Below, piece by piece: positions 1,729-60,753 of a stretch of DNA of 64,000 bases; the stretch's first letter is position 1, and each line of letters opens with the position of its first letter. The DNA comes from Spirochaetia bacterium (lineage in GTDB: Bacteria > Spirochaetota > Spirochaetia > SZUA-6 > Bin103), in the NCBI GenBank assembly GCA_965198005.1, contig CBDAOI010000003.1, forward strand, positions 640,001 to 704,000, given 5' to 3'. A program made the translations under genes and the position numbers. A model generated the notes under the pieces. That model worked only from the letters and a program-made list of their open reading frames with translations. It made no database searches and had not been told where the DNA came from.

Positions 1729-2368
1729 CTAATGTCCCATTTCTTCCTTCAGTTCATTATCAACCCAGAGGCGCGAGAAGACCGTCAGGTTTTGCATAGA
1801 TCCCATGCCGCCCTCGCCGCTGTAGCCTATTATCCACGGCTGGTGGACGTTGAACGCCGGAGGCAAAGGCCCCCATACCATCCAGTGCCGCTCGATGCTG
1901 AGCATGTCCATGTCCCTTATCGGGCGTTGCTGCTCCTCGACGGTGGTAGCCGCCAACATTTCTTCATACCAGGCTTCGTACTGCGGGTCGTTGATTATCG
2001 CCTTTGACTCGGCGGAGCAGCCTTGACGCCCGCTTCCTGGGACGTGGTACCCAGCCATTTCCCTGCCGATCTTTCCCCGAGGTATGATGTCAGCATAGCC
2101 CTTGAAGTAGGTGTTGTTCATGCTCTCGAGGTCCAGCGCCATCTGCATGCCATGGCGCACCCTTATGTCGTCATAGGGCGGTTTGGTCACGTTCATGAGC
2201 GTAGCGTTGTTCGACCGTTCCGACCACGGGACTAGCACGAGTTCCGGGTTGGTCCGCCGGAGGCTCTCTGCCTGGTCTACCGTGTTCAATTGAGCGGCGC
2301 CCTGCCAGCCGATGTAGTCGATCGTACCGGAGCGCAGTCCCGCCAGCATGGTTGGCACTTCCACGATA
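1729..2368 (-). pseudogene. OppA/DppA-like substrate-binding protein, C-terminal fragment with internal deletion
   Basis: LAGLRSGTIDYIG...DIRVRHGMQMALDLE...SRLWVDNELKEEMGH matches the intact paralogs. The N-terminal half and the segment at about 2030 are missing. Confidence 0.85.
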
Positions 2369-2371
2369 ATG

Positions 2372-2588
2372 AGACGAACGCATGGTTGCTCACCAGCGAG
2401 TGCATCGAGGCTGCCGCCTTCTCCGACAAAGACACGTAGAGATCCTGACCGGCAAAGGACGCGGCGGGCCGCGCCAGCGCCGATTGCAGCATCCCTCGAT
2501 CCCTCAGGCCGTCGGCTCCGCCGGTGTCGGCGAGCAGCGACCGATGGAGGTCCAGGATCTGCTGGTCACTGAGATACTCGATCATCAT
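2372..2588 (-). pseudogene. Doc/Fic family (death-on-curing) toxin, truncated
   Basis: MIEYLSDQQILDLH...GLRDRGMLQSALARP...KAAASMHSLVSNHAFV ends inside the Fic motif (expected HxFxDGNKR). Confidence 0.85.
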
Positions 2589-12446: not shown

Positions 12447-13427
12447 CTACCAGCGGACGAGGTTGCCGCCGTAGGTGAGCCCGGCCCCGAATCCGGCGGT
12501 CACGATCAGATCGCCGCGCTGCAGCTGGCCCTGCTCGACCAGATCGTTCAGGGCGATCGGAATGGTGGCGGCGGAGGTGTTGGCGTATTCGGCGATGTTG
12601 ACGTAGAACTTCTCGCGCGGGATGCCGCTACGTTTGGCCGCCGCCTCGATGATGCGCTCGTTGGCCTGGTGGGGGACGATGAACCTGACGTCGTCGATGC
12701 TGACGCGGTTGCGCTCGAGGATGGTGCGTACCGTATCCACGATCACCTGGACCGCGAAGTTGTACACCGCGCGTCCCTCCATCTTCAGCAGCAAGTCGCG
12801 CTGATCGGTCTCGCCGGGTTTGAACGGCGTTCGCGTGCCCCCTGCCTCGCGCGCCAGGGTCATGGCCCGCGAGCCGTCGGAGCGCAGAAACGAATCGAGG
12901 ATCCCGTGGCCGTTGTTCGAATGGGAGATCACCGCCGCACCGGCGCCGTCGCCGAACAGCACGCAGGTGTTGCGGTCGCTCCAGTCCATGATACGGGTGA
13001 GCACCTCGCTGCCGACCAGCAGGACGTGCTTGGCGGAACCGGCGGCGATCAACCCTCGGGCGGTCTCGAGCCCGTAGACGAACCCGGTACAGCCCACCAC
13101 CAAGTCCATGGCGGCGGAATTGGTGGCGCCGAGCTTGTCCTGAATGAGGCACGCGGTGGAGGGAAAGCCGACGTGGTCCGCGGTCGCGGTGGCCACCAGC
13201 ACCATGCCCAACTGCTCGGCACCGATCCCGGCGCGCTCCAGGGCCTGCAGCGCGGCGCGGTGTCCGAGATCGGAGGCGGCTTCCCCCTCACCCGCAACGT
13301 GGCGAAACTTGATTCCGGTGTGCGACTGGATCCATTCGTCCGAGGTGTCGAGAAACGCCTCGAATTCATGGTTTGCCATCCGTCGCTCCGGCACGTAGGC
13401 ACCGAGCGACCGAATCTCCGCCCCCAT
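12447..13427 (-). CDS. fabH: Beta-ketoacyl-ACP synthase III
   Basis: DTSDEWI, GCTGF, LFGDGAGA, PHQAN.RII, NTSAA, GFGAGLT. Confidence 0.95.
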   Translation of the reverse strand: MGAEIRSLGAYVPERRMANHEFEAFLDTSDEWIQSHTGIKFRHVAGEGEAASDLGHRAALQALERAGIGAEQLGMVLVATATADHVGFPSTACLIQDKLGATNSAAMDLVVGCTGFVYGLETARGLIAAGSAKHVLLVGSEVLTRIMDWSDRNTCVLFGDGAGAAVISHSNNGHGILDSFLRSDGSRAMTLAREAGGTRTPFKPGETDQRDLLLKMEGRAVYNFAVQVIVDTVRTILERNRVSIDDVRFIVPHQANERIIEAAAKRSGIPREKFYVNIAEYANTSAATIPIALNDLVEQGQLQRGDLIVTAGFGAGLTYGGNLVRW

Positions 13428-13520
13428 CAGCTACCCAAAGCTCCTCCGGCTGGGATTCAAGTGGCCCCCAGTATAGCAGTACCCGCCTGCTCCCGTCAAC
13501 CGTGCCGTTGCGGCCGGCGG

Positions 13521-14594
13521 TCAGGAGTCTTCCAGGCGCGCCAACTCGTCGTCGATGATCGCCGCCAGACTCTCGAACGGCACCGCTCCGGACAGAAAGC
13601 GCCCGTTCACGAACAGCGCCGGTGTGCCCGATACGCCGACAGCCGTGCCCGCGCGGAGGTCGTTGCGCACCGTTTCATAGTGGCGATCGGAGTCCAGGCA
13701 GCGGTCGAACGCGTCCTGATCCAGACCGAGGCGGCCGGCCTTCTCCTGGAGCGCGGGGACCGAGAGCGCGCCCTGCTCCGCGAACATCAGATCATGCATC
13801 TCCCAGAACTTGCCCTGGTCTCCGGCGCACAGCGAGGCTTCGGCCGCCTTCTGGGCATGCGGGTGAATGCCGGTCAGCGGATAGTGGCGGTACACCACGC
13901 GCAGGCGGCCGGCGTACTCCTCCTGGGCCCGCTTCAGGGTGGGCAGAAAGCGGGCGCAGAAGGGACACTCGAAGTCCGAGAACTCGACCAGCGTCACTGG
14001 TGCGTCCGCAGGACCGGTGGCGGCGAACCCGTCGGTGGCTACCGCGAACCGCAGCGGCTGCAGCAGATACTCGACCGCGAACCGATCTTCCAGCAGGGTG
14101 AAGAAGTCATTTCGAGCGAGCCGTAGCGCCTGCCGTTCCAGATAAGCGCGGATCTGGCCCCCCACGTTGGCAAACGGATCTCTGATACGCGCCTTGTTCC
14201 GTTCATAGAACTGCTCGACGTCCTCGTCGCTGATCGGTTGCGCCGCGTCCTGAATCCGCGCCTGGACCGCGGCGACCGTGGTACCGGTCCGCTCTGCTTC
14301 CCGCTCCAGCAATCGCCGGCGCACCAACTCTTGCAGGGATGCTTCGAGCACTTCCTGGCGGCCGCGGTCGGCCTCGGCCTGACACCGCAGGCGCGCCATC
14401 TCGTTCTCTTCGAGCGCCTGCGTCGCGGTGGCGAGAAGCTCGGCGCGCATGACCTCCTGCTCGCCAATGGTCGCTATCACGTCGCCCTGGTCCGCGCACA
14501 GCAACGGCGCCGCCCCAGCCAGCAATACCACGCCACACCACAGCGCCTTTGCCTTGCCGCCGCAGGTCGACCAGAATCGTTCGAAGACCGTCAC
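13521..14594 (-). CDS. DsbA/thioredoxin-4 family protein with N-terminal helical domain
   Basis: Signal-peptide-like N-terminus; VEFSDFECPFC and GTPALFVNG. Confidence 0.88.
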   Translation of the reverse strand: MTVFERFWSTCGGKAKALWCGVVLLAGAAPLLCADQGDVIATIGEQEVMRAELLATATQALEENEMARLRCQAEADRGRQEVLEASLQELVRRRLLEREAERTGTTVAAVQARIQDAAQPISDEDVEQFYERNKARIRDPFANVGGQIRAYLERQALRLARNDFFTLLEDRFAVEYLLQPLRFAVATDGFAATGPADAPVTLVEFSDFECPFCARFLPTLKRAQEEYAGRLRVVYRHYPLTGIHPHAQKAAEASLCAGDQGKFWEMHDLMFAEQGALSVPALQEKAGRLGLDQDAFDRCLDSDRHYETVRNDLRAGTAVGVSGTPALFVNGRFLSGAVPFESLAAIIDDELARLEDS

Positions 14595-14909
14595 TTCACA
14601 AGCCAGCGTACGCCGCGAAGCGCTCCGCCGTCAAGGTGGGCGGCGATTCTGCAGCAATTCTCGGTGAACGGCTGGTAGAGGGGCAGAGTGTCATAAGCTC
14701 AAGCCCTCCGAGTGTGAAACGCGACCATGCCCACCTGTTGGCCCACCGAGTGAACTCCCGTGAAAGGCAAGCACGCACGGTCCGACCGGCAGAAATTCTG
14801 TAACTGATTGCAGGTGATGTATTTAGCCACCGTCAAGCAGCCCCGTGCGATGACCTGACCACCGTCAGCCACCGCCGCTCGGCCGATGCCGCGGGCTGGC
14901 GCGGTGCAG

Positions 14910-15392
14910 CGACACCCAGGCGTTTTGATAGGTGGTCGTGCCGGCACGTACGATGCGGTAGTGCACGAAGTTGATCTTGGGACTGCGGGGGTTGCCGTTC
15001 AGCGGCACCCCGGTAACCCACGTCGATGGTGCCGCGGTGGTCCAGCAGCCGACCGCGGCGCAGCCCGTCGATATCCTGGTACAGGCTGGTGTGATCCTCC
15101 GGCTTGGCCACCAGCAGAAACGAGCAGCGGGCGGCGCGCACCTGTTCGATGAACGGTTGCTTGGAGTACAGACTATCGGCGACGATCACCGCAGCCAGCC
15201 GGGGATGGTCGTTACGGATGCGCTGCAAGGCACGGTAGCCGGCTTTTATTTCACAGTCTTGCTTGCGGCGTTTGGCATTCTTGGCGCCAGAGTCATCGGC
15301 GTTGTGAATGAACCCGGGAGCCAACGGCAGCACCTGCCGCTTGTCGGGGTGGACGATGGCGGTCTGCAGGATGTCGTGGTGGTAGCGTACGG
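14910..15392 (-). pseudogene. ISNCY-like DDE transposase internal fragment
   Basis: AIVHPDKRQVLPLAPGFI...KQDCEIKA...VIVADSLYSKQPF...FLLVAKPEDH. Confidence 0.7.
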
Positions 15393-15570
15393 TGAGGTGG
15401 TCCTGGAAAATTGGACAGGAGGTTAAGGTGTATTCGAGGCCATGAGGAGGGCCAAGGAGATGGCGACGACACGACGTCGATTCACAGCGGAGTTCAAGGC
15501 ACGGGTAGTGGTGGAAGCGTTGCGCGGTGACCGCACGATCCAGGAGATCGGGGCCAAGCACCGCGTTGAT
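15393..15570 (+). mobile_element. IS3-family left end and truncated OrfA
   Basis: TG-initiated end TGAGGTGGTCCTGGAAAATTGGACA followed by MATTRRRFTAEFKARVVVEALRGDRTIQEIGAKH. Confidence 0.75.
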
Positions 15571-15724
15571 CATCGCGCCGCAAAAGGTCGCCCGACGACT
15601 GGTAGGCGATCACCGCTGCGGTTCTCACCTTGTTCCCGGCAGCCTCGTTGTAGAAGCTTTGGATGGTAGGTGAGGTGGACGGTCACCCGCGCGCAGGCGC
15701 GTGGCCCCCATGCGGGCTCCTCTT

Positions 15725-16621
15725 TCAAACCGACCTGGCGGCATCGGCACCCAGGCGGCCCCCACCACCCCTCAGCCGCGGGTCGAGCAGATCCCGCACC
15801 GCATCGCCGAACATGTTCAGGCAGTAAACGGTGAGAGTCAGAGCGAGACCAGGCCACAGAGCCAGCCATGGGGCAATTTCCATGAACTGACGCCCTTCCC
15901 GGCTGAGCATGCCACCCCAGCTCGGAACACTCGGCGGCAGACCGAATCCGAGAAAGCTCAAGGACGCCTCGCTGATGATCACTCCACCGATGTTGATGGT
16001 GAATATGACGATTACGACCGGCATGATATTGGGCAGGACGTGTCGGATGAATGTTCTCCATTTTGAGGAGCCAACCGACTCCGCCGCATCAAAATACGCA
16101 TTCTCCTTTATGTCGATAACGGCGCCTCTTACGGTTCTCGAGCCGACGATGCCTCCCGTTAATCCCAGCACCGCTATGATCTGTGGCATACCCCGCCCCA
16201 CTATCGACATTACGGTCAACAACAGGAGCAGTCCCGGAAAAGCCATCCAGGCGTCGACAAATCTCTGCACGGCCAGGTCCAGTTTGCCGCCAAGGAATCC
16301 AGAAATGCCGCCTATCAGGACAGCGACGACAGCATTGAGAGCGGTCGCCGCCAGACCGACCGTGAGCGAAAGACGAGCTCCGTGGATAAGGCGGCTCAGG
16401 AAGTCTCGCCCCACGTAGTCGGTACCCAGGAGAAATTTGGCTGACGGGCCCTGCAGAATGTCTGACTTGTGTATTTCCATATGACCATAGGGAGACAAAA
16501 CATCAGCAAGGATACTGACAAGAATCAGCATCAATATGATGATCCCGCAGGCGGTGCCCAGTGGCTTCGTCCGCCACATCCTGGTAAGGAAATCAGCGAG
16601 GTTGTTACGTTCTCTATTCAT
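15725..16621 (-). CDS. Peptide/nickel ABC permease (OppC/DppC-like), cassette 1
   Basis: LGTD..GRD.LSRLI.GAR.SL, EAA loop, RHVLPN, EASLSFLGFG. Confidence 0.93.
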   Translation of the reverse strand: MNRERNNLADFLTRMWRTKPLGTACGIIILMLILVSILADVLSPYGHMEIHKSDILQGPSAKFLLGTDYVGRDFLSRLIHGARLSLTVGLAATALNAVVAVLIGGISGFLGGKLDLAVQRFVDAWMAFPGLLLLLTVMSIVGRGMPQIIAVLGLTGGIVGSRTVRGAVIDIKENAYFDAAESVGSSKWRTFIRHVLPNIMPVVIVIFTINIGGVIISEASLSFLGFGLPPSVPSWGGMLSREGRQFMEIAPWLALWPGLALTLTVYCLNMFGDAVRDLLDPRLRGGGGRLGADAARSV

Positions 16622-17750: not shown

Positions 17751-19541
17751 TCAGAAACCCATTCCTCTCTTCAGATCCTGGTCGATCCAGAGGCGAGGAA
17801 CGACGACTCCAGCGTCTATCGTTTCACCGTTAAAGCCGGTGACCCACGGCTGCGTCACAGTAAATACCAGCGCTCTACCAAGCCATAGATGCCAGTGGTT
17901 CTCTACGAGGTACATATTTGCCTCTCTGACTAACCTCTGCTGCTCCTCATGGGTAGGGGCGCTTTCTGCGGCTTCAACCATGGCGTCATAGGCCGGTTCC
18001 CGCACACCGGCGGGGTTCCATGTCGAGGTCGATACATTCTGTCCGAGCGGGCCGAGTATGCTATGATAAAACCCGATGGCTTCACTCGTCATGCCCTCAT
18101 AGGTATGTTCTCGTAGACGGCCAGCCCAAGTCGCCGAATCCATTGGTTGGAGCTCGACCTCAACGCCAATCTCACTAAAGTATGCTACGGCCAATTCGTG
18201 AAGGCCTAGATCACCTATATCTCTAAAGTCCAGGCCAGTCTTGAATCTAATGCCGTCGGCGCCGCGAGGATATCCGGCCTCATCAAGCAGCGCTTCTGCC
18301 CCTTTCGGGTCGTAGGTATAGTACTGCTGGATGTCTTCGGGCCAATCTTCAAACGGCAGCACATACCCGACCACTGCGTCCGACATATACCCTACAGGTA
18401 CCCCTAATGACCAACCCTTCATGTAGGTATTGCTCACTGTCTCACTGTCCCATGCCATCTGCATTGCGTGGCGTACCCTGATGTCGTTAAAGGGCGGATT
18501 TTGCGCGGACAGAGCAATACCCAGCCCCCAAAGGTAATGGGGAACGACTTGGATGTCGGGGTTGATCTGCTGGAGATTCGCTACCGTATTGACGTCCTGT
18601 ATTTGAGAACCGAAAAGAAAACCTAGGTAGTCGGTCTTACCCGAGCGCAGCGCCGCCAGACGTGTTGCCTCGTCGGGCATAATCATCACCTTCAACTCGT
18701 CAACATAGGGCAAGCGGTTCTCCGGGTATTTCTCATCGAATCCCCAGTAGTTGGGATTCTTCTTGAAGGTAATGGAGCTGCCTTCGACCCAATCAGCGAG
18801 TTCGAAGGGCCCGGTACCGACCAAGTTCCTCCAGTCCGTAACGTCGCCGTGTTGCTCGATTACTTCGGGGGGCAATATGCACATAGGGTACCCAAAGACG
18901 ATTTCACGAAAGGCCTGCAGGTTTGGCTTTTCTATGGTAAAGACAACCGTATGTTGGTCGGTTGCCGTTATCGATTCGATTCCCGCTTCGTCGACTCCTC
19001 CCCACTGGGCAATGTTGGGGCTGAATTCGGTATAGCCGCTGCCCAGACCCGTATAGCGATGCCAGTTATATTCGACATCCTTGGCAGTGAGCTCCCGACC
19101 GTTCATCGGCGCCTTGTCATGCCAGTTAACGCCCTGGCGGATGTGAAAGGTAAAGGTGAGGCCGTCGGCGGAAATGTCCCAGCTTTCCACCAGACGACCT
19201 GTTCTGGCAGAGTCAGGTATGTAGGCGCCTGCAAGGTCAAATTCGTCCCTATCTACTGCCCAGTCGAGATTGCCCAGCTGCTCGCACACGAACTCGTTAG
19301 CACCTCTTGTAGGATGTCCGAAGAAGGCGTCGGAACCCGCAGGGTCGGACAGCCGGGTCGCGGTGAATGTCCCGCCATACTGTGGCGCGGACACCAGCTT
19401 GCCGGTGGTCGGGTCGAGCACGATTTCCCTTTCGGCTGCCGCTGCCGGCTCCGTGTCTGTGGCGCCACCCGCCCAGAGGCCGGTCGCGGTCAGAACGAGG
19501 ACCAACGCAATCGCGAAGGTCCTTGAAAAAAATATCTTCAT
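17751..19541 (-). CDS. Family 5 ABC substrate-binding protein (OppA/DppA-like), cassette 1
   Basis: Start at MKIFFSRTF (ATG 19541, purine-rich RBS). Signal peptide ...TGLWAGG; LVESWDIS.DGLT.TF.IR, GTGPF. Confidence 0.93.
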   Translation of the reverse strand: MKIFFSRTFAIALVLVLTATGLWAGGATDTEPAAAAEREIVLDPTTGKLVSAPQYGGTFTATRLSDPAGSDAFFGHPTRGANEFVCEQLGNLDWAVDRDEFDLAGAYIPDSARTGRLVESWDISADGLTFTFHIRQGVNWHDKAPMNGRELTAKDVEYNWHRYTGLGSGYTEFSPNIAQWGGVDEAGIESITATDQHTVVFTIEKPNLQAFREIVFGYPMCILPPEVIEQHGDVTDWRNLVGTGPFELADWVEGSSITFKKNPNYWGFDEKYPENRLPYVDELKVMIMPDEATRLAALRSGKTDYLGFLFGSQIQDVNTVANLQQINPDIQVVPHYLWGLGIALSAQNPPFNDIRVRHAMQMAWDSETVSNTYMKGWSLGVPVGYMSDAVVGYVLPFEDWPEDIQQYYTYDPKGAEALLDEAGYPRGADGIRFKTGLDFRDIGDLGLHELAVAYFSEIGVEVELQPMDSATWAGRLREHTYEGMTSEAIGFYHSILGPLGQNVSTSTWNPAGVREPAYDAMVEAAESAPTHEEQQRLVREANMYLVENHWHLWLGRALVFTVTQPWVTGFNGETIDAGVVVPRLWIDQDLKRGMGF

Positions 19542-19562
19542 CGTTTCTTCCTTGAATGTTAT

Positions 19563-19727
19563 TTCGAGAGTATTGCGGAGCGGATTGCCTCCCTGGCTAC
19601 TCTCGGGCCCGCAATGCGGACGGCCAGTCTGAGTCAATTTGTGAAGCGCGCGGCGTGTGACTCGGCGGGTTCACCCCAGGGCTCACGCCGCGCGCCTACG
19701 GTTCTTTGAGTATCATTCGACCTCCTT
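19563..19727 (-). promoter_or_regulatory. Type-1 SBP leader: SD + micro-ORF MILKEP (19716-19696) + 12-bp hairpin + GAGAG/CTCTC stem
   Basis: AAGGAGGT precedes the ATG. Inverted repeats at 19646-19657/19684-19695 and 19565-19572/19598-19605. Homologous to 44862-45051 and 36474-36532. Confidence 0.65.
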
Positions 19728-20003
19728 CTTCTCTAGATCTACGTCGGGATCTGCGTTATAACGCCACGCGTGGTGGTGGTCTGAGCAGCAGCGAGTCTGA
19801 ATGGCCGGCAACGCTGGGGGTGTCGCCGGCCGGGATCCGGGACGGTTGCGGTCGCCGGGAAGGGCGCGGGCGGCCCGCATGCCGGTTCGGCGATGGGCGG
19901 AGCCGGCGCCACCGATAGCTACGGCGGTGGTGAAGGCGACGGCGTGCGCGGGGGGGGGCGGGGCATAAGCGCTAACTTGTTGTGGGGGCCTACAGGGGCC
20001 ATG

Positions 20004-20148
20004 CATGACTTTACTGTGCGACCGTACCACGGACGTGCGACTCGGATCAACCAGCCGCGTCGAAAAAATCGAAGAAATCTGACCGCTCATGGCCCTACGG
20101 TGCGACCGTATCACGGCCCCGCGACTCGCGTCAACCACCTGCGTCGAA
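20004..20148. repeat. Two imperfect ~60-bp direct repeats, period 84 bp
   Basis: GTGCGACCGTA(C/T)CACGG...GCGACTCG...TCAACCA..GCGTCGAA at 20004-20064 and 20088-20148. Confidence 0.75.
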
Positions 20149-38067: not shown

Positions 38068-38290
38068 TCAGTCACGCCCGAACCCGCGCGGCGGTTCGAC
38101 GCTCTCCAGTTCGGCAAGCTCAAGGGCGCAAATCGCCTGCAGCTGGTGAGCGAGCGCGGACTCCCCGAGATTGTCGGGCAGGTTGTCGAGCCACGCCTGG
38201 TACTCACCCTGGAGGTCGAGCAGGGTGCGCACCGCCTCCTGCCAGCGCTGCGGTCGCGACCTGCGGTCCTGCGGCGTGCGGTAATGCAGG
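38068..38290 (-). pseudogene. Small mobile-element-associated hypothetical protein, 5'-truncated
   Basis: DRRSRPQRWQEAV..LLDLQ.EYQAWLDNLP...EPPRGFGRD is protein-like and resembles a small family I recall from plasmid/IME contexts (unverified). Confidence 0.5.
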
Positions 38291-38297
38291 CGCGGCT

Positions 38298-38956
38298 GAG
38301 TGGGACGGGACTTCCTCAGCCGCAACATCTACGGTGCGCGCCTGTCGCTGCTGGTCGGCTTCGCGGCCACCGCGGTGGCGGTGCTGGTGGCCACCGCCGT
38401 CGGCGGCCTGTCGGGGTTCGTCGGCGGGCGACTCGACCTGCTGACGCAGAGATTCGTCGATGCCTGGATGGCGTTTCCGGGACTTCTCCTGCTCATGACC
38501 ATCATGTCGATCCTGGGTACCGGTGCGCCGCAAATCATCATCGTGCTGGGCCTGACCTACGGCATCGGCAGCTCGCGCGTCATCCGGGGCGCGGTGATCG
38601 CCGTCAAGGAGAACGCCTACTTCCAGGCCGCCAGGGCCGTCGGCAATCCTGGGTGGCGCACGATGCTGCGCCATGTGCTGCCGAACGTGTTCGCCCCCAT
38701 CATCATCACCGAGGCCAGCTTGAGCTTTCTCGGCTTCGGGCTGCCCTTGAGCGTTCCCAGCTGGGGCGGCCTGCTGAGCCGTGAGGGGCGCCGCTACATG
38801 CAGGTGGCGCCGTGGCTGGCCATGTGGCCCGGCATCTTCCTCACCATCGTGGTGTACAGCTTCAACATGTTCGGAGACGCGGTGCGCGACCTGCTCGACC
38901 CGAGGCTGCGGGGTGGTGGCGGGCGGCTGGGTGCCGATGCCGCCAGGGCGGTTTGA
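38298..38956 (+). pseudogene. OppC-like permease, 5'-truncated, with 33-bp in-frame deletion
   Basis: Very close to 62015-62660; lacks VIFSITIGAVI. Confidence 0.88.
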
Positions 38957-38981
38957 CAGCGCGCGCATGCGCTCCGCACCC

Positions 38982-39200
38982 GGTGTCACGCCGGATGCAC
39001 GCTGACCTGGACCCGTGGTTCTATCCGCTGCCCGCGGGTGGCATGGTTGTTGCTGTTCCGGAGGCGTGACCGGAACGCGGCCGACCAGGTCGACGAGCGC
39101 CGGGCTGTGCATGGGCGTGACCTGGCCGCTCAGCTCGAAGCAGCGCCTGGCATCGTAGTGTCGGCGCATCATCGGGCACCGTAGACCGAGTCGGCGAAGT
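38982..39200 (-). repeat. Dispersed non-coding repeat, copy 1 (inverted relative to 40321-40581)
   Basis: Reverse complement shares CTTCGCCGACTCGGTCT..., GGCGCTGCTTCGAGCTGA.CGGCCAGGTCACGCC and GTGCATCCGGCGTGACACC. Confidence 0.75.
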
Positions 39201-39429
39201 AGGTGGTCCCGTAGAGCTGCTCCGACAAGCGCGCCAGGTACTCGCCCGAGCGACCGTTGGATAAGCCGTGTGACCAAGGACTGCGGGCGCTGCTGTCATG
39301 ACTTCCGTCGATACCCGAAATCCCCAATCCTATGTGTTGTGGACCGAGCGCTGAACGAGATCGTGTTCAGCGAAACACAGGGCAGACGGACGTCGTCATG
39401 CAGGCCGTTGAGGAGGTTCTTGAGCGAGC

Positions 39430-39850
39430 GTGAGCGTGCGTGTGGTGCTCGACACTGGGATCCTCATTGCCGCTCTGATCACACGGGACACACCGCCAGA
39501 CCAAATGTACCAGCTCTGGCGTAAGCGACGGTTTACACTGATCACGTCGGAACCGCAGCTGAGCGAGTTCCGGCGCGTCACCCGCTATCCGAAGTGTATC
39601 GTTTCTGAAGCCTCACGAAGCAGGAACGCTGCTAAGGCTAAGGGGGTTGCGCGCCAGAGCCGACATCGTCTCAGAGCTTCCACAGATCGACCTTGTCGAT
39701 GACGCCGGCGACAATCTCTTGCTCGCCACTGCGGTCGCCGGCGATGCTGATCATCTCGCCAACGGAGATCGGCGTCACCTCTTGCGCCTGAAGAAGGTGC
39801 AGCGGGCGAGGATCCTGACGGCACGCGAGTTTGGCAGCGCTGCTCGACTG
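39430..39850 (+). pseudogene. PIN-family putative toxin, internally deleted/frameshifted
   Basis: VRVVLDTGILIAALIT...LSEFRRVTRYPK, then in another frame DAGDNLLLATAVAGDADHL..GDRRHLL. Confidence 0.75.
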
Positions 39851-40094
39851 ACCGGTCCCGACGAACGGGCCGGCGCCGCCAGCGGGCCTTTTCCCCAAAG
39901 TCGCTGGTCGCGCCGCTTATGCCACAGTTTCGTGCGTGGCGGCCGATGAGAGGGATGGGCACGGTTGCAGGAGCGGTGGCGATTCCCCGAGGTCAGTGGT
40001 GTTGTTCCCCGAGCGGCCTGCCGACGGTCGGTGGGGAGCGGGTTCACGGCTCGTGTGTCGTGGCCTCCCAGCCGCCGGCTACTGCCGGGTGGTG

Positions 40095-40581
40095 GCCTCC
40101 GACCTTCGCCACGATGATGCACAGACCCTGCAATGCCAGTCGCCGCTTTCAGACTGACCGGTTCGGTCAGCGGGTTCCATGACCCGTCGCTGGTGAGCGT
40201 GATGGGTGGTGACTCCGGACGCGCGCAATCGCCCCGCCCTCCATGGCGCGGGAACGCCTGTGTTGGGCCCCATGGACGGGGCCCACGAAACGGACGACGC
40301 CTCAGTCGTGTGATGAGTCACTTCGCCGACTCGGTCTGCGGTGCCTAATGACGCGCCGACACTACGATGCCTGGCGCTGCTTCGAGCTGACCGGCCAGGT
40401 CACGCCTATACACAGTGCGGCGCTCCGTCGACCTGGTCGGGCGCGTTCCGGGCGCGCCTCCGGAGTTGCCAACGGGCTCCCAGCCCACGACGTCCCTGTC
40501 GCGGTCCGCGAGCTACATGCCACCCGTGGCGGCAGGGAGGGCGCCATCGGGTGGAGGTCACCGTGCATCCGGCGTGACACC
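40095..40581 (+). repeat. Dispersed non-coding repeat, copy 2
   Basis: 40095-40140 and 40328-40405 match 48253-48372; 40321-40581 matches 38982-39200 inverted. Confidence 0.75.
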
Positions 40582-40773
40582 GCGGGGCTGCCGGTCGGCC
40601 GCGCACGCACAGGTCGGTGCGGCGGCGGTGGCGAAGCCGAAGGATGCCCGCGCCGGGGTGATCGAGCGCGAAGACATCTGGGGCCGATCCGTCGCACCTC
40701 GCCTTGCTGACTGGGCTGGACGGGCACCCACGCGCAGGCGCGTGCTCACCTGCGCTGCCGCAGGTGGGCCTTC

Positions 40774-43027: not shown

Positions 43028-44839
43028 CTAATGACCCATTGCCTCCTTCAGCTCACTATCAATCCAGAGGCGGGCGAAAAGTGGAATACTGTCCCCGGTT
43101 GGGTCATTTTCACCGTCATAACCTATGATCCACGGCTGGGACACATTAAAACTTGGAACTCTCGGACCCGCGAACCACCAGTGATTCTCTATGAGGTACA
43201 TATTTGCCTCGTTGACCAGCCTCTTCTGCTCCTCAATGGTGGTAGCGGCTTCGGCGGCTTCATACATGGCGTCATAAACCGTGTCGTTGACGTTGGGGGG
43301 GTTCCATCCTGAGGCCGAGTAAGCTCCCGTTAACGGCAGAAGCGCGGGCTGATAGTCGGCGTTTGAAACTTGAGTAACCAGACCTTGCTGCTTATGCTCT
43401 CGCACAAGAGCCGTATAAGCAGTTCCGTCAACTACCTGCACCTCTACAGCAATGCCAATGGCACGCAAGTATTCGATGACTATCTGGTAATAGTCTAAAT
43501 CGAATGGCCCGTAGTGGTCATAGACGGTGCGGAATCTTACGCCGTCCGCGCCGCGAGGTAATCCAGCCTCATCAAGCAACGCTTCTGCCCCTTCCGGGTC
43601 ATAGGTATAGTATCTCTTGAGCTCTTCGGGCCAGTCTTCAAATGGGGTGAAATACCCGATAAGACCTGTCCCTATCTGCCCTGCAGGCGTCGTATCTGCC
43701 CAACCGTGGAAGTAGGTATCGTTAATTGTCTCAAGGTCGACTGCCATCTGTATTGCGCGGCGCACCGTGACGTCGTTCCAGGGTGGCATCTGCACGTTAA
43801 AAGTCATAGCCGTATCCGCACGAAATGAAAATGGCCACAGGTTCAGTTCGGGGTTGGTCCGCTGGAGGCTTACCGCCGTATCGATGCTCCTTATTATTGT
43901 GCCGCCCGCCCGACCGATGTAATCAGCCTTACCTGTACGCATTAACGCCAGATTTGTCGCTTGTTCCGTCGATATCAGGGACCTTATCTCGTCAACATAG
44001 GGCAGGCGGTTCTCGGGGTACTTTTCGTCGTAGCCCCAGTAGTCAGGATTCTTGGTATAGGTGAGGGAACTGCCCTCGACATGGTCAGTCAGCTCAAAGG
44101 GCCCGGTGCCGACCACGTTCCTCCAATCCGTAACGTCGCCGTATTGCTCGACTACCTCGCGGGCCATTATCCATCCGAGACTTCCAAGGAGGATTTCCTT
44201 CAGCGCTTCGAGGCGTATCGACTTCAGCTTAAAGACAACCGTCCATTTGTCGGTGGCCGTTATCGATTCAACATTCATCTTTTCGAGGGGATGAGCGGCA
44301 GCGGCAACATCAAAGCTAGGTTCGGCTTCACTGAAGTCGCCCAGGCCCAATATACGCTGAAAGCTATATTCTATATCCTCGGCAGTTAGCTCCCGACCGT
44401 TCACGGGTGGCTTGTTGTGCCAGTGAACGTCCTGGCGGATGTTGAAGGTATAGGTGAGGCCGTCCGGGGAAATATCCCAGCTTTCAGCCAGCCTCCCTGT
44501 TACGGCAGACAGAGGGACGAAACCTGTCAAAAAGTCAAATACGTCCCTATCTAATGCCCAGTTCCAGTAGCCTAGCTTCTCATTAACACCCGAGATAGTG
44601 TTTGTCGCGGTGTACGAGAAATAGGGGTCAATATTCTTACCGATGTTAGACTGGACTTGGGTGAATGTCCCGCCGTACTCCGGCGCGGTCACCACCTTGC
44701 CGTTGGTGGGGTCGGTCACATACTTCTTGTCGGCGGCGGCTGCCGAGCCCTCCTCTGCGCCACCCGCCCAGAGGCCGGTTGCGGTCAACACGAGGACCAA
44801 CGCAACCGCGAAGGTCATTCTAATTCTTACAATATTCAT
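43028..44839 (-). CDS. Family 5 ABC substrate-binding protein, cassette 2
   Basis: Signal peptide ...TGLWAGG; LAESWDISPDGLTYTF, GTGPF. Confidence 0.93.
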   Translation of the reverse strand: MNIVRIRMTFAVALVLVLTATGLWAGGAEEGSAAAADKKYVTDPTNGKVVTAPEYGGTFTQVQSNIGKNIDPYFSYTATNTISGVNEKLGYWNWALDRDVFDFLTGFVPLSAVTGRLAESWDISPDGLTYTFNIRQDVHWHNKPPVNGRELTAEDIEYSFQRILGLGDFSEAEPSFDVAAAAHPLEKMNVESITATDKWTVVFKLKSIRLEALKEILLGSLGWIMAREVVEQYGDVTDWRNVVGTGPFELTDHVEGSSLTYTKNPDYWGYDEKYPENRLPYVDEIRSLISTEQATNLALMRTGKADYIGRAGGTIIRSIDTAVSLQRTNPELNLWPFSFRADTAMTFNVQMPPWNDVTVRRAIQMAVDLETINDTYFHGWADTTPAGQIGTGLIGYFTPFEDWPEELKRYYTYDPEGAEALLDEAGLPRGADGVRFRTVYDHYGPFDLDYYQIVIEYLRAIGIAVEVQVVDGTAYTALVREHKQQGLVTQVSNADYQPALLPLTGAYSASGWNPPNVNDTVYDAMYEAAEAATTIEEQKRLVNEANMYLIENHWWFAGPRVPSFNVSQPWIIGYDGENDPTGDSIPLFARLWIDSELKEAMGH

Positions 44840-44861
44840 ACGTATCTCCGTATGTAGATGT

Positions 44862-45051
44862 TTCGAGAGTATTGCGTAGCGGATTGCCGCTCCCTGGCTA
44901 CTCTAACGCCCGCAACCGCGGGCGCGCCCGCAAACGCGGACGGCCAGTCAGAGTCAAATTCCTGAAAGCGCGCGGCGTGTGACTCAGCGGGTTCACCCCG
45001 GGCTCACGCCGCGCGCGCGTGCGGTTCTTTCAGTATCATCTTCACCTCCTT
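44862..45051 (-). promoter_or_regulatory. Type-1 SBP leader: SD + micro-ORF MILKEPHARAA (45039-45004) + hairpins
   Basis: AAGGAGGT SD; stem 44968-44979/45005-45016; AGAGTA...TACTCTCGAAA before the RBS. Confidence 0.65.
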
Positions 45052-45414
45052 CTCGGGGCACAGGGTGCCGTGCCAGATGGCTGACGTAAGATGGGATCCG
45101 CGTGCGCGCCCCATCATGCAAACGCCCACCGCTCGGCGGAGGTCGGGACCTGCGTCACAACGCCACGCGGGGCGGTGGTCGGCCGAGCAACGCATGTGGT
45201 TGACCGGCGACGTGGGCGGTCGGTTCTGTGACGGTGAGTTGGGGGGCGGGGATCCAGGACCGCTGCGGTCGCAGCCGGCCGCTACCCCGGTGCTGAAGGC
45301 GACGGCGTGCGCGGGGGCACGTACGGGGCGATCAGCCGGAGCGGTTAGTTGTTTCTCGGTTCGAAAAAGTGTGTGTGTGTGTGTGGGGGGGGGGGGGTAG
45401 GAAGCATCGGTTGC

Positions 45415-46100: not shown

Positions 46101-46196
46101 TTGCTACTGGGCTGGGTCATGTCGTCACCCATACACATGCGAGCATAGACCAGCGCGAGAGGCGTGGCAAGCGCTTTGGGCAGCGTGGGCAGCGTG

Positions 46197-46366: not shown

Positions 46367-46524
46367 GGGGTGCATTCCGTCTGTGTGGTAGCGCACGGGA
46401 CCGACAAGAGCGGTGTCACCGAGATCGAGCATGGCGGCCAGCGCGGCCAGGGAACCGCCAACTCCGCCGGCGATGGGCGTTGACACCGAAGAAGCCGCGC
46501 GGATATGTTCGCCATCGGGTCGTC

Positions 46525-53858: not shown

Positions 53859-53995
53859 AAGGAGGCATGGGATGAAACACCCGACCGGGTACGACTAACT
53901 CGGACCCCAGGATGTCGCCCTTCGCTCGACTATGAGAGCGCGCTCGCGGGAGCGAGCGTTGCGAGGGGCCGGCAGTGGAATCAGTGCTCTCGAAA
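53859..53995 (+). promoter_or_regulatory. Type-2 leader: SD + micro-ORF MKHPTGYD (53872-53898) + structured RNA
   Basis: AAGGAGG 6 nt before the ATG. GAGAGCG...TGCTCTC stem enclosing the hairpin CGCTCGC-GGGA-GCGAGCG. Confidence 0.6.
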
Positions 53996-54014
53996 CTATT
54001 GTAAGGAGATCTCA

Positions 54015-55811
54015 ATGAGATTTTTCAAAACAGGCCTCGCGATACTGTGCGGCCTGGTTCTGACCGCGACCGGCCTCTGGGCCGCTGGCGCAGAAGAGGC
54101 ACCGGCAGCCGCCGCCGACAAGAGGTATGTGACGGACCCCAGCACAGGGGAGCTAGTGGTCGCGCCAGAGTACGGCGGGACATTGACCTTCCCCACTACT
54201 AAGGAGTTTGAGATTGCCGACGCCTGGTTCATTAGTGGCAACGCCAGTTCGTTCGTCTCCGGCGTTCTAGAGAAGCTAGTTATAGGAGACTGGGCAGTAG
54301 ATAGGGACGAATGGGACTGGCAAGGTCCAAACGTACCTCCAGAATACTTGATAGGGCAACTGGCGGAAAGCTGGGAACAGCCCGACGACACAACTTATGT
54401 GTTCAATATCCGTAAAGGCGTTCACTGGCATGATAAGGCGCCGATGAACGGGCGGGAGCTAACTGCCAAGGATGTCGAATATAACTATCACCGCATATTG
54501 GGTGTGGGCAGCGGCTTCACCGAACCTAGCCCATCATTACATGATATGAGGTCTGTGCAATTCGAATCGATAACGGCCACCGACGACTATACCGTTGTTT
54601 TCAAGCTGAAGCGGCCACACATCAATCCGCTCCCGCTTATCACGGACTGGTGGACAAATTACATATACCCCCCCGAGGTAATCGAGCAATACGGCGACGC
54701 CAAGGATTGGAGGAACCTGGTCGGCACCGGGCCCTGGATGCTGACTGATTGGGTCGAGGCCAGTTCCTATAACTTCATCAAGAATCCTGACTACTGGGGG
54801 TTCGACGAAAAATACCCGGAGAACCGCTTGCCCTATGCTGACGAGTTAAAGGCCCTCGTTATGCCAGACGAGGCAACACGTCTGGCAGCAATCCGCTCGG
54901 GTCGGGTTGATCTGGGAAGTTCGGTGGGCACTATCTCCACTGACATCAAGTCTATCGACCAGGTCGAGAGCCTCCAGCGGAGCAATCCCGAAATCGAGCT
55001 GCACAAGGTTTCCATCCGCTCGAACCATGCTTTTAGTATGAACCTGAATAACCCGCTTTTTAGCGACATTCGAGTGCGTATTGCATTGCAGAAGGCACTG
55101 GACCTCGAGACAATTGCCAATACCTTCTTCAAGGGATATGCAAACTGGGAACCTCGCGGGGTAGTAGGGACTTCTCTCAAGGGCTATTACGAACCATATG
55201 AGGAGTGGCCCGAGGAGATCAAGGAACGCTATACCTATGACCCGGCAGCGGCAGAAGCGTTACTCGATGAGGCCGGATTTCCTCGTGGTGCCGACGGCAT
55301 TAGATTCGAGACTACCAGCCTTGCCTGGGGGCACGCACCCACAGGCTATCAAGAATTGGCCTCTGCATACTGGCGTGAGATTGGCGTTGCTGTAGAGATC
55401 GAGGCAATGGAGTCCGCTCAGTTAGCCAAAATAGCGAGCTCCTCAATGCATGAAGATATGCGCAGCGGGGAGATGAGCCATCATTATCTCGCTGAGCACC
55501 TTGTGGGTCGCTGGTCCGGCAACGTGTGGAACCCCGCCGGCCAATTTTCGGACCCGACTTTTGACGCCAAGCTTGAGACCATGCGAGCTACTACTGACCT
55601 CGAGGAGTACAAGAGGCTGTTTAGAGAGCTGGATATGTACGCGACTGAGAAGCACTGGTATATATGGGGGCCCGAGTCCCCACAGTTTAACTGGAATCAG
55701 CCGTGGGTCATAGGTTATAATGGTGAAACCACGCTGGGTTATGGTCAAGCTTATCAGATGTTGGCCCGCCTCTGGATTGATAGTGAGCTGAAGAGCGCAA
55801 TGGGTCAATAG
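54015..55811 (+). CDS. Family 5 ABC substrate-binding protein, cassette 3
   Basis: RBS AAGGAG, start MRFFKTGL, signal peptide; LAESWEQPD, GTGPW. Confidence 0.93.
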   Translation: MRFFKTGLAILCGLVLTATGLWAAGAEEAPAAAADKRYVTDPSTGELVVAPEYGGTLTFPTTKEFEIADAWFISGNASSFVSGVLEKLVIGDWAVDRDEWDWQGPNVPPEYLIGQLAESWEQPDDTTYVFNIRKGVHWHDKAPMNGRELTAKDVEYNYHRILGVGSGFTEPSPSLHDMRSVQFESITATDDYTVVFKLKRPHINPLPLITDWWTNYIYPPEVIEQYGDAKDWRNLVGTGPWMLTDWVEASSYNFIKNPDYWGFDEKYPENRLPYADELKALVMPDEATRLAAIRSGRVDLGSSVGTISTDIKSIDQVESLQRSNPEIELHKVSIRSNHAFSMNLNNPLFSDIRVRIALQKALDLETIANTFFKGYANWEPRGVVGTSLKGYYEPYEEWPEEIKERYTYDPAAAEALLDEAGFPRGADGIRFETTSLAWGHAPTGYQELASAYWREIGVAVEIEAMESAQLAKIASSSMHEDMRSGEMSHHYLAEHLVGRWSGNVWNPAGQFSDPTFDAKLETMRATTDLEEYKRLFRELDMYATEKHWYIWGPESPQFNWNQPWVIGYNGETTLGYGQAYQMLARLWIDSELKSAMGQ

Positions 55812-58420: not shown

Positions 58421-59040
58421 CGCGCTCCACCCCAGCACCGGCAGCCGAACGCGCCGAAGCGCTTGCTACATCTCTCGCGCTGGTCTAAGCTGCAGGTGTA
58501 TGGGTAACGACATGACCCAGCCCAGCCGCCGCGTAGCGCGGAGGCACCCGACTACCCGACTACCCGACTACCGCGCACCGCTAGCCGCTCAGCCGACCAC
58601 ACAGCGGCCTACCGCTCGGCGCCGGTGCTGAGCGCAGCATCGATCCATGTGGCGCACAGTCGCCACGCCTCCGTGCGTCCAGCGGCCGACCCCGTCGGCC
58701 GCCACTTCCACCAGTCCACACCAACATGCGTAGCGACGCTTGCCGGCCGCCACCACGCGTGGCGTGCGCAGGCATGCCCTTTCGGCGCGGCGCGCGCGCG
58801 TCAAAGGAGGCATGGGATGAAACACCCGACCGGGTACGACTAGCTCGGACCCCAGGATGTCGCCCTTCGCTCGACTATGAGAGCGCGCTCGCGGGAGCGA
58901 GCGTTGCGAAGGGCCGGCAGTGGAATCAGTGCTCTCGAAACTATTGTAAGGAGATCTCGATGAGATTTTTCAAAACAGGCCTCGCGATACTGTGCGGCCT
59001 GGTTCTGACCGCAACCGGCCTGTGGGCCGCCGGCGCAGAT
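58421..59040 (+). repeat. Type-2 SBP upstream module, copy 2 (promoter 58463-58491; micro-ORF 58817-58843)
   Basis: Direct repeat of 53479-54095. Confidence 0.92.
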
Positions 59041-60753
59041 GAAGAGGGGTCGGCTGCTGCTGCCGAGAAGGAGTACGTGACCGATCCGTCCACCGGCAAG
59101 CAGGTGCTCAAGCCGGCGTACGGCGGGACCATTACCGTTGCGCAGCGACCCCTTGGGTTTGACCACGCCGACACGTGGATCAGTCACGCCGGCGGAGTGT
59201 ACGCGGGAGCGGCTCTGGACAAGTTGGGCCAAGCCGACTGGGCAGTCGACCGCAGCGTCAACAAAATGGTGACCTACTATCCGGAGAGCGTCGTCACCGA
59301 CCACCTGGCCGAGAGCTGGGAGAACCCGGATCCGTTGACCTACATCTACAAGATCCGCGACAACGTCTTCTTTCACGACAAGCCGCCGGTGAACGGTCGC
59401 CAGTTTACCGCTGACGATATGGCCGCGAACTACGAGCGCCTGTTCGGCATCGGCAGGTTTGCCGGCCAGGAGCCCGCGGTGCATACGTGGGGGACAAAAG
59501 CCCTGCCTTTCGAGTCGGTAACGGCCACCGACAAGCTGACATTGGTGATCAAGCTGTCGCGGCCAGCCGCGGACACCCATCGGCAACTGTTCGACGACTG
59601 CCACGTCCGGGCATATCCGCCCGAGACCTTCGACATGCTCGGCAACGTCAACAACCTGATCGGCACCGGGCCCTTCATGGTGAACGAGTACGTCAGTGGC
59701 ACCTCGATCACATGGGACAGGAACCCCAACTACTGGAAGGACGACGAGAAGTACCCGGGGAACCGCCTGCCCTACGCCGACAAGCTCGTGATGCTGTTCA
59801 TGAGCGACGAGGCGACCATACTTGCGGCACTGCGGTCGGGCCAGATCGATATCGCCGGGGCGACCGGTAACGTGCTGATCAAGTCGATCGCCAACGCGGT
59901 GCAGCTGCAGAAAGATGTCCCGGGCACGCAGCTCTTCCCGATCGCGCGCCGATCGGAGACGTCGTTGGGGATGAGAATGGATAAGCCTCCCCTTAACGAC
60001 ATCAGGGTGCGCCACGCGCTGCAGATGGCGCTCGACCTGGAGACCGTCAGGGATAACTATTTCTTGGGCTTCGGCGAGTGGCAGCCGATGGGGTCAATCG
60101 GGCCTGCGGTGATCGGTTACAACAACCCCTTCGATACTTGGCCCGAGGAGCTCAAGAAGTTCTGGTCCTACGACCCGGCGGGTGCCGAGCGACTGCTCGA
60201 TGAGGCCGGATACCCACGCGGCGCGGACGGCGTCCGCTTCCAGACCTCGATCTTGATCAGAGGCGACCGGAGCGACGTGGGCTATATGGAGCTGGTAGCC
60301 GGCTACTGGAAGGAGATCGGCGTGGAGGCCGAGATCGAGGCGGTGGACACCGCCACGTACGAGAGACGGCGCCAGGCGTTAGATTTCGACGGATTGAAAG
60401 ACTTCTGGGCCGTCGGCGCCGACTACGGGGATCTCAACAGTACCCTCGGCCAGTTTCGCGACGACTCAACTTTCAGGGCCGGCACCTTTAGTGACCCGGT
60501 GTTCGAGGCCAAATATGACGAGTTACAGGCTGCCGCTGGTGACGCGGAGGAGCACCGACGGCTGGCGAAGGCGCTCGACATGTACGTCATCGAGCAGCAC
60601 CCCTACATCTATGGTCCGCGGGTTGCAACGTTCAACGTTGCGCAGCCATGGATCGTCGGCTACAACGGCGAGATGGCGATCGGCAACTGCGCCTGGAACG
60701 GGCCGTACGCGCGCATGTGGAACGATAGTCAGCTCAAGGCCGAGTTGAACTAA
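58960..60753 (+). CDS. Family 5 ABC substrate-binding protein, cassette 4
   Basis: Start MRFFKTGL; LAESWENPD, GTGPF. Confidence 0.93.
   Translation: MRFFKTGLAILCGLVLTATGLWAAGADEEGSAAAAEKEYVTDPSTGKQVLKPAYGGTITVAQRPLGFDHADTWISHAGGVYAGAALDKLGQADWAVDRSVNKMVTYYPESVVTDHLAESWENPDPLTYIYKIRDNVFFHDKPPVNGRQFTADDMAANYERLFGIGRFAGQEPAVHTWGTKALPFESVTATDKLTLVIKLSRPAADTHRQLFDDCHVRAYPPETFDMLGNVNNLIGTGPFMVNEYVSGTSITWDRNPNYWKDDEKYPGNRLPYADKLVMLFMSDEATILAALRSGQIDIAGATGNVLIKSIANAVQLQKDVPGTQLFPIARRSETSLGMRMDKPPLNDIRVRHALQMALDLETVRDNYFLGFGEWQPMGSIGPAVIGYNNPFDTWPEELKKFWSYDPAGAERLLDEAGYPRGADGVRFQTSILIRGDRSDVGYMELVAGYWKEIGVEAEIEAVDTATYERRRQALDFDGLKDFWAVGADYGDLNSTLGQFRDDSTFRAGTFSDPVFEAKYDELQAAAGDAEEHRRLAKALDMYVIEQHPYIYGPRVATFNVAQPWIVGYNGEMAIGNCAWNGPYARMWNDSQLKAELN

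Follow-up and report, generated by a model that had tools for sequence, protein, structure and literature searches.

The 64,000-nucleotide stretch of DNA analysed here (the window) covers positions 640,001 to 704,000 of the forward strand of contig CBDAOI010000003.1 from a Spirochaetia bacterium (assembly GCA_965198005.1). It contains four intact genes, and no others of this kind, for SBP_bac_5 solute-binding proteins (SBPs), the peptide/nickel-type binding proteins of ATP-binding cassette (ABC) transporters. The encoded proteins are 596–603 amino acids long and carry N-terminal signal sequences, and two permease genes follow each SBP gene (cassettes 1–4). An initial annotation of this DNA had proposed an RNA stem ahead of the ribosome-binding site (RBS) of all four genes, and the stem was located at all four sites as claimed. 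This stem, here called P3, is one helix of a predicted H-type pseudoknot within a leader element of about 70–110 nucleotides, which is probably a shared, previously undescribed control element of SBP genes. The initial annotation was correct on the stem itself, and missed the pseudoknot, the more than 100 copies per genome and the homology of the two types of leader.

Architecture of the leader element

All leader motifs are given in mRNA sense, on the strand of the downstream gene. At the four sites P3 is a stem of 6–8 bp with the consensus (C)GAGAGYR / YRCUCUC(G), whose 3' arm ends in CUCUC and is followed by (G)AAA. The strand order a-b-a'-b' of the pseudoknot can be read directly at every site. 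In cassettes 1 and 2 (type A), the P3 5' arm is immediately followed by GCCAG, which pairs with a CUGGC that lies just before hairpin P2, and in cassettes 3 and 4 (type B) the opening bases of the P3 loop, GCGARGGG, pair with the upstream strand CCCUUCGC. From 5' to 3' the element consists of the pseudoknot 5' strand, the optional hairpin P2, the P3 5' arm, the pseudoknot 3' strand, a loop with a conserved CGGCA, and the P3 3' arm; the loop carries hairpin P4 in type A and is single-stranded in type B. Counted on the sequences, the loops are long enough to cross the stems: loop 1 has at least 8 nucleotides or carries P2, the junction is 0–1 nucleotide or holds an inserted hairpin, and loop 3 has 16–25 nucleotides. 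The subgroup of cassettes 3 and 4 is without P2 and has a hairpin of 18 nucleotides inserted at the junction of the two helices, and a hairpin of the cassette 3 type is also inserted in leaders L022, L024, and L039. The inner hairpins read as first annotated (GGAG/CTCC, AGCGG/CCGCT, and CGCTCGC-GGGA-GCGAGCG). The features of the four sites are as follows.

19623..19627, minus strand: cassette 1 pseudoknot 5' strand CUGGC, complementary to GCCAG at 19593-19597
19607..19621, minus strand: cassette 1 hairpin P2, GUCCGC-AUU-GCGGGC, in the minimum free energy (MFE) and centroid folds and covarying across copies
19598..19605, minus strand: cassette 1 P3 5' arm CGAGAGUA (DNA CGAGAGTA), from sequence and fold
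19593..19597, minus strand: cassette 1 pseudoknot 3' strand GCCAG, immediately past the P3 5' arm, by complementarity
19577..19592, minus strand: cassette 1 inner hairpin P4, GGAG...CUCC, in type A only, from sequence and fold
19565..19572, minus strand: cassette 1 P3 3' arm UACUCUCG (DNA TACTCTCG), then AAA, from sequence and fold
19542..19564, minus strand: cassette 1 AU-rich linker AAAUAACAUUCAAGGAAGAAACG with the Shine-Dalgarno sequence (SD) at 19547-19553, from sequence and GC profile
17751..19541, minus strand: cassette 1 SBP_bac_5 gene, start codon at 19541 (Pfam E 5.3e-68)
44943..44947, minus strand: cassette 2 pseudoknot 5' strand CUGGC, by complementarity and fold
44907..44942, minus strand: cassette 2, two P2-like hairpins in tandem, in the MFE fold
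44899..44904, minus strand: cassette 2 P3 5' arm AGAGUA, from sequence and fold
44894..44898, minus strand: cassette 2 pseudoknot 3' strand GCCAG, by complementarity
44878..44891, minus strand: cassette 2 hairpin P4, AGCGG-CAAU-CCGCU, from sequence and fold
44866..44871, minus strand: cassette 2 P3 3' arm UACUCU, then CGAAA, from sequence and fold
43028..44839, minus strand: cassette 2 SBP_bac_5 gene, SD at 44845-44849 (Pfam E 5.8e-67)
53918..53925, plus strand: cassette 3 pseudoknot 5' strand CCCUUCGC, pairing with GCGAGGGG over 8 bp with one G.U, in the MFE fold
53934..53940, plus strand: cassette 3 P3 5' arm GAGAGCG, from sequence
53941..53958, plus strand: cassette 3 additional hairpin CGCUCGC-GGGA-GCGAGCG, inserted behind the P3 5' arm and ahead of the pseudoknot 3' strand, from sequence and fold
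53961..53968, plus strand: cassette 3 pseudoknot 3' strand GCGAGGGG, from alignment and fold
53985..53991, plus strand: cassette 3 P3 3' arm UGCUCUC, then GAAA, from sequence
54015..55811, plus strand: cassette 3 SBP_bac_5 gene, SD at 54004-54008 (Pfam E 1.4e-65)
58863..58870, plus strand: cassette 4 pseudoknot 5' strand CCCUUCGC, pairing with GCGAAGGG by 8 Watson-Crick pairs, with support from the fold
58879..58885, plus strand: cassette 4 P3 5' arm GAGAGCG, from sequence
58886..58903, plus strand: cassette 4 inserted hairpin like that of cassette 3, from sequence and fold
58906..58913, plus strand: cassette 4 pseudoknot 3' strand GCGAAGGG, from sequence and fold
58930..58936, plus strand: cassette 4 P3 3' arm UGCUCUC, then GAAA, from sequence
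58960..60753, plus strand: cassette 4 SBP_bac_5 gene, SD at 58949-58953 (Pfam E 2.1e-66)

The two leader types had been described as otherwise unalike, which is wrong, as they have one common architecture and intermediate forms exist. Both share the pseudoknot layout, GAGAG/CUCUC, the loop CGGCA, and CARUA before the P3 3' arm; one leader combines a type B-like upstream sequence with a type A loop, and both types are found by a single covariance model. Types A and B are homologous.

Two fragments of SBP genes in the window are without the leader element, one at 1732-2565 (minus strand), matching profile positions 281-393 and 507-598, and one at 48899-49990 (minus strand) with only a weak match of 40 residues. 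No ABC ATPase domain was found in 12 neighbouring reading frames scanned (12447-16061, 38204-40710, 45496-47580, 62898-63977), which are part of the reading frames of the window. The four cassettes appear to consist of an SBP and two permeases only, and their ATPases may be shared and encoded elsewhere in the genome.

Comparative support, family size, and distribution

In the MFE folds of cassettes 1 and 2 calculated with ViennaRNA, P2, P3, and P4 are formed (z-scores of -2.5 and -1.6). ViennaRNA cannot model pseudoknots, and because nested folding cannot hold the knot, the co-existence of both helices rests on comparative evidence and not on energy. In an alignment of 64 distinct sequences from 8 genomes, fitted to the covariance model and thus leaning towards it, 96.6% of the cells of P2 and P3 are paired compared with 33–64% for slid partners, and 8 of the 12 pairs are changed on both sides compared with 3.1 in shuffled alignments, with none of 500 shuffles reaching this value. 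The pairing proposed from the four sites holds and covaries with these additional sequences, with compensatory changes in both P2 and P3 well above the shuffled controls. When P2, P3, and the pseudoknot are imposed on 37 type B leaders aligned with MAFFT alone, 91.3% of the cells are paired (slid controls 17–51%), and 11 of the 21 pairs are changed on both sides compared with 4.6 after shuffling (0/500). Type A leaders alone are 91.0% paired and too uniform to covary.

Within P3, 4 of 7 pairs are changed on both sides in the 64-sequence alignment. The exchanges of U-A for C-G at position 6 and of A-U for G.U at position 7 had been annotated correctly, with pairing kept, and in the alignment these positions read UA:44 / CG:15 and AU:43 / GC:10 / GU:5, respectively. 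Covariation of P3 is limited to these two inner pairs, the outer GAGAG/CUCUC being nearly fixed (GC 59/61, AU 54/64, GC 62/64, AU 62/64, and GC 64/64 for the outer five pairs). The type B pseudoknot helix has 7 pairs that are 96–100% paired, and its changes are mostly C to U giving G.U; five pairs show such one-sided changes and two are changed on both sides, in one sequence each, so that this helix is conserved rather than covarying. Its strands match each other class by class in the complementary pairs CUGGC/GCCAG, CCCUCGC/GCGAGGG, CCUCGU/ACGAGG, and CCCCUGUU/GGCAGGG. Where the 5' strand has gained a U, the 3' strand has gained a matching A (CCUUCGC/GCGAAGG), and the related leaders UUGCUGUC/GGCAGCGA and CUCUGUC/GGCAGGG differ by a change from U.G to G-C. 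The longest helix that leaders form with their own upstream region scores 6.39 compared with 5.01 for the upstream regions of other classes, their own scoring higher in 56/61. These comparisons support both stems of the predicted H-type pseudoknot, the support being weak within type A alone.

The genome of 4.89 Mb (66% GC) contains 139 reading frames that score above 400 bits against a profile of the four SBPs of the window. The sequence CTCTCGAAA occurs 56 times in the genome compared with 21 times for its reversed control, an excess over chance, and 43 of the 56 sites lie inside matches to the covariance model. This model, whose structure comprises P2 and P3 alone, was built on 37 diverse leaders representing both types, and gives 116 matches in the genome, about one per 42 kb, of which 79 are copies outside the seed. 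It has exactly four matches in the window, all at the four sites, which are in the seed alignment and whose scores follow by construction. An SBP-like frame directly follows the element in 113 of the 116 copies (96 of them frames of at least 500 amino acids), and the other three precede truncated frames that start like SBP signal peptides. The gap between the end of the model and the start codon is 4–55 nucleotides, mostly 19–20. One leader (L038, G000:C4:381246-381495) has two elements in tandem about 130 nucleotides apart, the first followed only by a remnant of 39 codons that begins like an SBP signal peptide and the second by an intact SBP gene; this tandem is the scar of a deletion or recombination between cassettes. 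A third SBP subfamily on other contigs of the genome, with a signal peptide ending in ...LALAFALV, has an unrelated leader without the pseudoknot element, in which two GC hairpins are followed by CCCGAAAC and AAGGAGG, a similar layout of different sequence.

Among 10 other genomes of the genus, 7 carry copies of the element (81, 42, 1, 74, 46, 9, and 3), with an SBP-like frame after 25/25 matches examined, and the three without copies are 81%, 95%, and 95% complete. The covariance model found no copies in 13 genomes of the sister genus or in 17 genomes from seven other families of the order, and a phylum-wide sample of 150 genomes also gave none. Genomes that bear copies also hold the expanded SBP subfamily, whereas two complete members of the genus without the RNA have one close SBP match each among the matches listed. 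Exact patterns for the type B and type A cores, which diverged copies would escape, had 0 matches in JGI metagenome contigs. The view that this is not a known riboswitch also stands. None of the 4227 models of Rfam 15 matches the element, the whole window yielding only a tRNA at gathering scores, and a search of the cassette 1 and cassette 3 leaders to E=10 returned three noise matches in one and none in the other, the best with 18.7 bits against a gathering score of 44 and on the other strand. Membership in a known RNA family was dropped on this basis, and the records returned by a full-text literature search, as far as their text was available, held no description of this motif.

The mature bodies of the SBPs have a median amino acid identity of 46.5% (96 full-length genes, 4,555 pairs). 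For the element, linker, and first 25 codons, the median nucleotide identity is 79.6% in the 1,916 pairs that could be aligned over at least 120 nucleotides of this region, and it is almost independent of body identity (r=0.11). Far-upstream DNA gave an identity of 0.52, which is the background of that aligner. Because neutral DNA would be unalignable at this depth and yet the changes in the leaders keep pairing, the leader is likely held by selection.

Ribosome-binding window and upstream leader

Counted from the start codon, the knot occupies about -25 to -110 and stops about 10–12 nucleotides short of the SD. GC content drops from about 0.67 to 0.30–0.47 between -30 and +19, and the drop begins at the GAAA after P3. 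The knot ends exactly where a weakly structured, AU-rich window of about 50 nucleotides starts, comprising the SD, the AUG, and the first 6–7 codons, and it is the upstream wall of this open ribosome landing window. The first 20 nucleotides of the SBP genes are only 30% GC in this 66% GC genome. The coding sequence of the signal peptide contains a conserved hairpin at about +17 to +47 (19498-19523, minus strand; 54031-54056, plus strand), with AGGACC...GGUCCU in type A and CAGGCC...GGCCUG in type B. The strongest conservation within the gene is in the signal-peptide region, for which this hairpin and the low GC content may be the reason.

Further upstream, all four leaders contain short reading frames with strong SDs (19696-19716 and 45004-45039 on the minus strand, 53872-53898 and 58817-58843 on the plus strand), which read MILKEP(HARAA) in cassettes 1 and 2 and MKHPTGYD in cassettes 3 and 4. 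Across the genome, 51 copies of type A and 11 of type B have such a frame, 25–59 nucleotides ahead of the element. The type A frame, MILKEP, often continues as HARAA into the 5' arm of a GC hairpin of 12 bp. In the type B frame, M-x-P-K-T-G-Y-D, T-G-Y-D is kept while third codon positions vary, which argues that this frame is coding. The GC-rich hairpin, GCGCGCGGCGUG...CACGCCGCGCGC, is found at 19646-19695 (minus strand) and in cassette 2 at about 44968-45018 (minus strand), and its 5' arm is overlapped by or abuts the end of the type A frame. Its loop GAGUCA is complementary to UGACUC 11 nucleotides downstream, and both sides are invariant across type A.

Several hundred bases upstream of the cassette 2 leader is a tract of C13 followed by (AC)8 (45369-45397, minus strand). 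A C9 tract precedes cassette 1 (19950-19958, minus strand) and cassette 3 (53573-53581, plus strand) and is interrupted before cassette 4. These simple repeats are possible slippage-prone tracts. The palindrome CCACGCGTGG occurs at 19764-19773 (minus strand), 53805-53814 (plus strand), and 58753-58762 (plus strand), in a conserved block about 200–260 nucleotides upstream of the SBP starts, and only 11 of the 125 leaders examined contain it in exact form. The block could be a promoter or operator region; a simple promoter scan found nothing.

Possible function and comparison with known systems

The initial proposal, which named a new cis-regulatory RNA, a protein-binding site, or a site of processing as candidates, gained support from both the Rfam and the covariation checks. 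The element is very likely a functional cis-acting RNA structure, and our reading is a new leader RNA, restricted to the genus, through which translation or mRNA stability is controlled. In the explanation that we favour, to which we assign a probability of roughly 0.55, a lineage-specific pseudoknot leader acts as a translational operator. The leader RNA family would have been copied along with the SBP genes and then kept by selection, and the knot, at the upstream edge of the 30S footprint, would act in cis on the mRNA. The outer P3 pairs and the loop letters are near-invariant beyond what pairing needs, which suggests that something reads sequence and not shape alone. A single factor, whether a small ligand or an abundant protein, may recognise the invariant GAGAG/CUCUC and CGGCA, and more than 100 uptake genes would be tuned together through it. 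That the element responds to a factor at all, rather than acting constitutively, we judge to be an even proposition.

Several observations weigh against this explanation. Nested MFE folds of cassettes 3 and 4 form the pseudoknot helix without P3 (z-scores of -2.2 and -2.4). Type A alone covaries weakly in its MAFFT alignment of 26 sequences (4 pairs changed on both sides compared with 2.7 after shuffling, 110/500), the copies are related, coming from one genome and one genus, so that the shuffle controls overstate the support, and G.U cells (about 37) outnumber A.C cells (about 27) only moderately in the type B MAFFT alignment, making the strand-specific support modest. Seven pairs of genes have leaders at least 95% identical with bodies 40–60% identical, and gene conversion at the 5' end appears from these to contribute to the likeness of the leaders. 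Forcing P3 in the partition function left SD accessibility unchanged (0.57 to 0.57 in type A and 0.42 to 0.45 in type B), terminator-like and promoter-like sites numbered 0 in 19480-20100 and 53500-54080 (two leaders), and neither forced folding nor these scans revealed an expression platform. We infer that the element is transcribed and where its mRNA begins, and a single factor acting on more than 100 mRNAs would have to be abundant.

Two specific mechanisms were rejected. Masking of the SD by the pyrimidine-rich P3 3' arm was dropped as a general mechanism, since forcing P3 leaves the SD unopened. In nested MFE folds of type B, CUCU often pairs with GGAG; the type A SD, AAGGAAG, is not complementary to the P3 3' arm, the AC/GU match in one type B subgroup reflects common descent, and on inspection the P3 3' arm and the SD flank do not covary. 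An intrinsic terminator or sigma-70 promoter in or next to the element was discarded on the scans of the two leader regions, and no U run follows P3.

The main rival to the translational operator is a constitutive structural element, in which the knot and the coding hairpin (about +20 to +47) would wall off the AU-rich landing window and possibly protect against nucleases, giving high steady expression of binding proteins without sensing. We consider this possible though clearly less probable. It agrees with the AU-rich window (GC 0.30–0.47) being flanked by GC-rich structured segments, with the multiplication of the element along with the gene family, and with SD pairing that is unaffected by forcing P3 and gives no sign of a switch, and the unrelated GC hairpin of the third SBP subfamily, followed by GAAAC and an SD, suggests that the design is general. 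However, the invariance of GAGAG/CUCUC and CGGCA exceeds the needs of pairing, a clamp would need nothing as elaborate as a pseudoknot whose loop letters are conserved, and the conserved short frames upstream in the same leaders point to regulation.

A small-molecule riboswitch, a sub-case of the operator reading in which the pseudoknot would be the aptamer for one metabolite or ion with A and B variants, is unlikely. A compact H-type pseudoknot near the RBS with covarying stems, the unpaired CGGCA and CARUA common to both types, and a coherent class of downstream genes would all suit it, and 116 copies would be no obstacle for a small ligand, which is naturally abundant. The lack of an expression platform in the forced folds and scans of two leaders argues against it, as do the considerable differences in the loop between types (P4 or single strand) and the restriction to one genus, with 0 of (13 + 17 + 150) other genomes and two metagenome pattern scans giving copies. 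A bolder form, a new aptamer class that senses one intracellular signal and gates more than 100 transporter operons, with the leader peptides adding a second input, is marginally more doubtful still.

Lower again we place a switch driven by the upstream short frames, in which translation or stalling on a leader peptide would re-pair the leader and set knot formation or continued transcription. The SD-bearing frames of the 51 type A and 11 type B copies, the third-position variation in type B, and the entry of the type A frame into the GC hairpin are consistent with it. However, the frames stop too early in the leader to reach over the pseudoknot 5' strand, no U-tract terminator was found in the two leaders scanned, the ATG is lost in many type B copies, and the invariant GAGUCA/UGACUC pairing that would link the modules gives no covariation.

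It is very improbable that the element is a functionless passenger, alike only through recent duplication or gene conversion, because, despite the seven pairs with near-identical leaders noted above, bodies about 47% identical are accompanied by leaders still about 80% identical whose changes keep pairing. Least credible is an inverted repeat acting as DNA, either a dimeric protein operator or a recombination site: two identical half-sites could also give mirrored changes, and A.C cells are not rare, but the distance between the arms varies widely, whole hairpins are inserted, and the interleaved pseudoknot complementarity is meaningless for a dimer site, and on these grounds we excluded a DNA palindrome; in addition, G.U is tolerated in both helices, and the element always lies in sense orientation, behind a leader reading frame and before the RBS.

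A structured leader RNA typically serves only a few genes of its genome. In this case a single fold stands ahead of 116 genes in this genome and 42–81 genes in four related genomes, and its spread follows the very large expansion of a single family of binding proteins (139 paralogs above 400 bits). If it is a sensor or operator, it would exemplify post-transcriptional coordination of a huge uptake repertoire, and were the single-signal aptamer true, its regulon would, to our knowledge, be the largest of any cis-acting RNA. If constitutive, it would show in a clean natural case how a genome of high GC content provides the ribosome with an open landing site. With two variants, natural compensatory mutants, hairpin insertions, and compact size, the family is well suited to structure probing.

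The leader-peptide attenuators tna and trp resemble these leaders in their short conserved frames with strong SDs. Here, in contrast, P3 lies 25–59 nucleotides or more downstream of the frames and is without terminator features; the type A frame overlaps the GC hairpin, no U-tract terminator was found in the leader regions scanned, and P3 is outside that module. The ompA 5' untranslated region hairpins and cryIIIA STAB-SD are 5' stabilisers of mRNAs for abundant envelope or secreted proteins, and their site of action is the extreme 5' terminus of the mature mRNA. They share with this element a stable structure, purine-rich SD-like tracts (GAGAG, GAGGGG), a long leader, and exported proteins, whereas here a leader reading frame lies further upstream of the element.

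H-type pseudoknots also form the SAM-II, preQ1-II, SAM-V, and fluoride riboswitches, which likewise are small knots in the 5' leader near the RBS with conserved loop letters that could line a groove. The element has the conserved, covarying domain of a riboswitch in the 5' leader of a coherent set of genes, but the forced folds and the scans of two leaders showed no expression platform, neither alternative pairing that would conceal the SD nor a terminator. In these riboswitches the knot usually has a 3' strand that contains or abuts the SD, whereas here the SD is about 10–12 nucleotides further downstream with a predicted accessibility independent of P3; none of their Rfam models matches, and the element is confined to one genus. 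The Escherichia coli rpsO/S15 pseudoknot and thrS operator are protein-binding translational operators at the edge of the 30S site. They too place structured RNA just upstream of the SD, where protein recognition blocks or traps the ribosome, but are single-gene feedback loops, in contrast to one element type before more than 100 paralogous genes.

The mRNA operator of phage T4 gene 32 has a 5' pseudoknot followed by more than 40 nucleotides of less structured A/U-rich RNA that holds the RBS, and the knot nucleates the repressor, which then covers the open stretch (PMC535899). It is a single phage copy with a knot of about 28 nucleotides, compared with 116 chromosomal copies of 70–110 nucleotides with extra hairpins. 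In T4 the repressor is encoded by the regulated gene itself and is a cooperative single-strand binding protein. Self-regulation is implausible here because the product is a secreted SBP_bac_5 binding protein with a signal sequence. Otherwise the T4 layout recurs here in GC profile, pairing probabilities, and folds, with a knot followed by GAAA and an AU-rich window containing the SD and AUG, and the T4 gene 32 operator is the closest architectural parallel documented.

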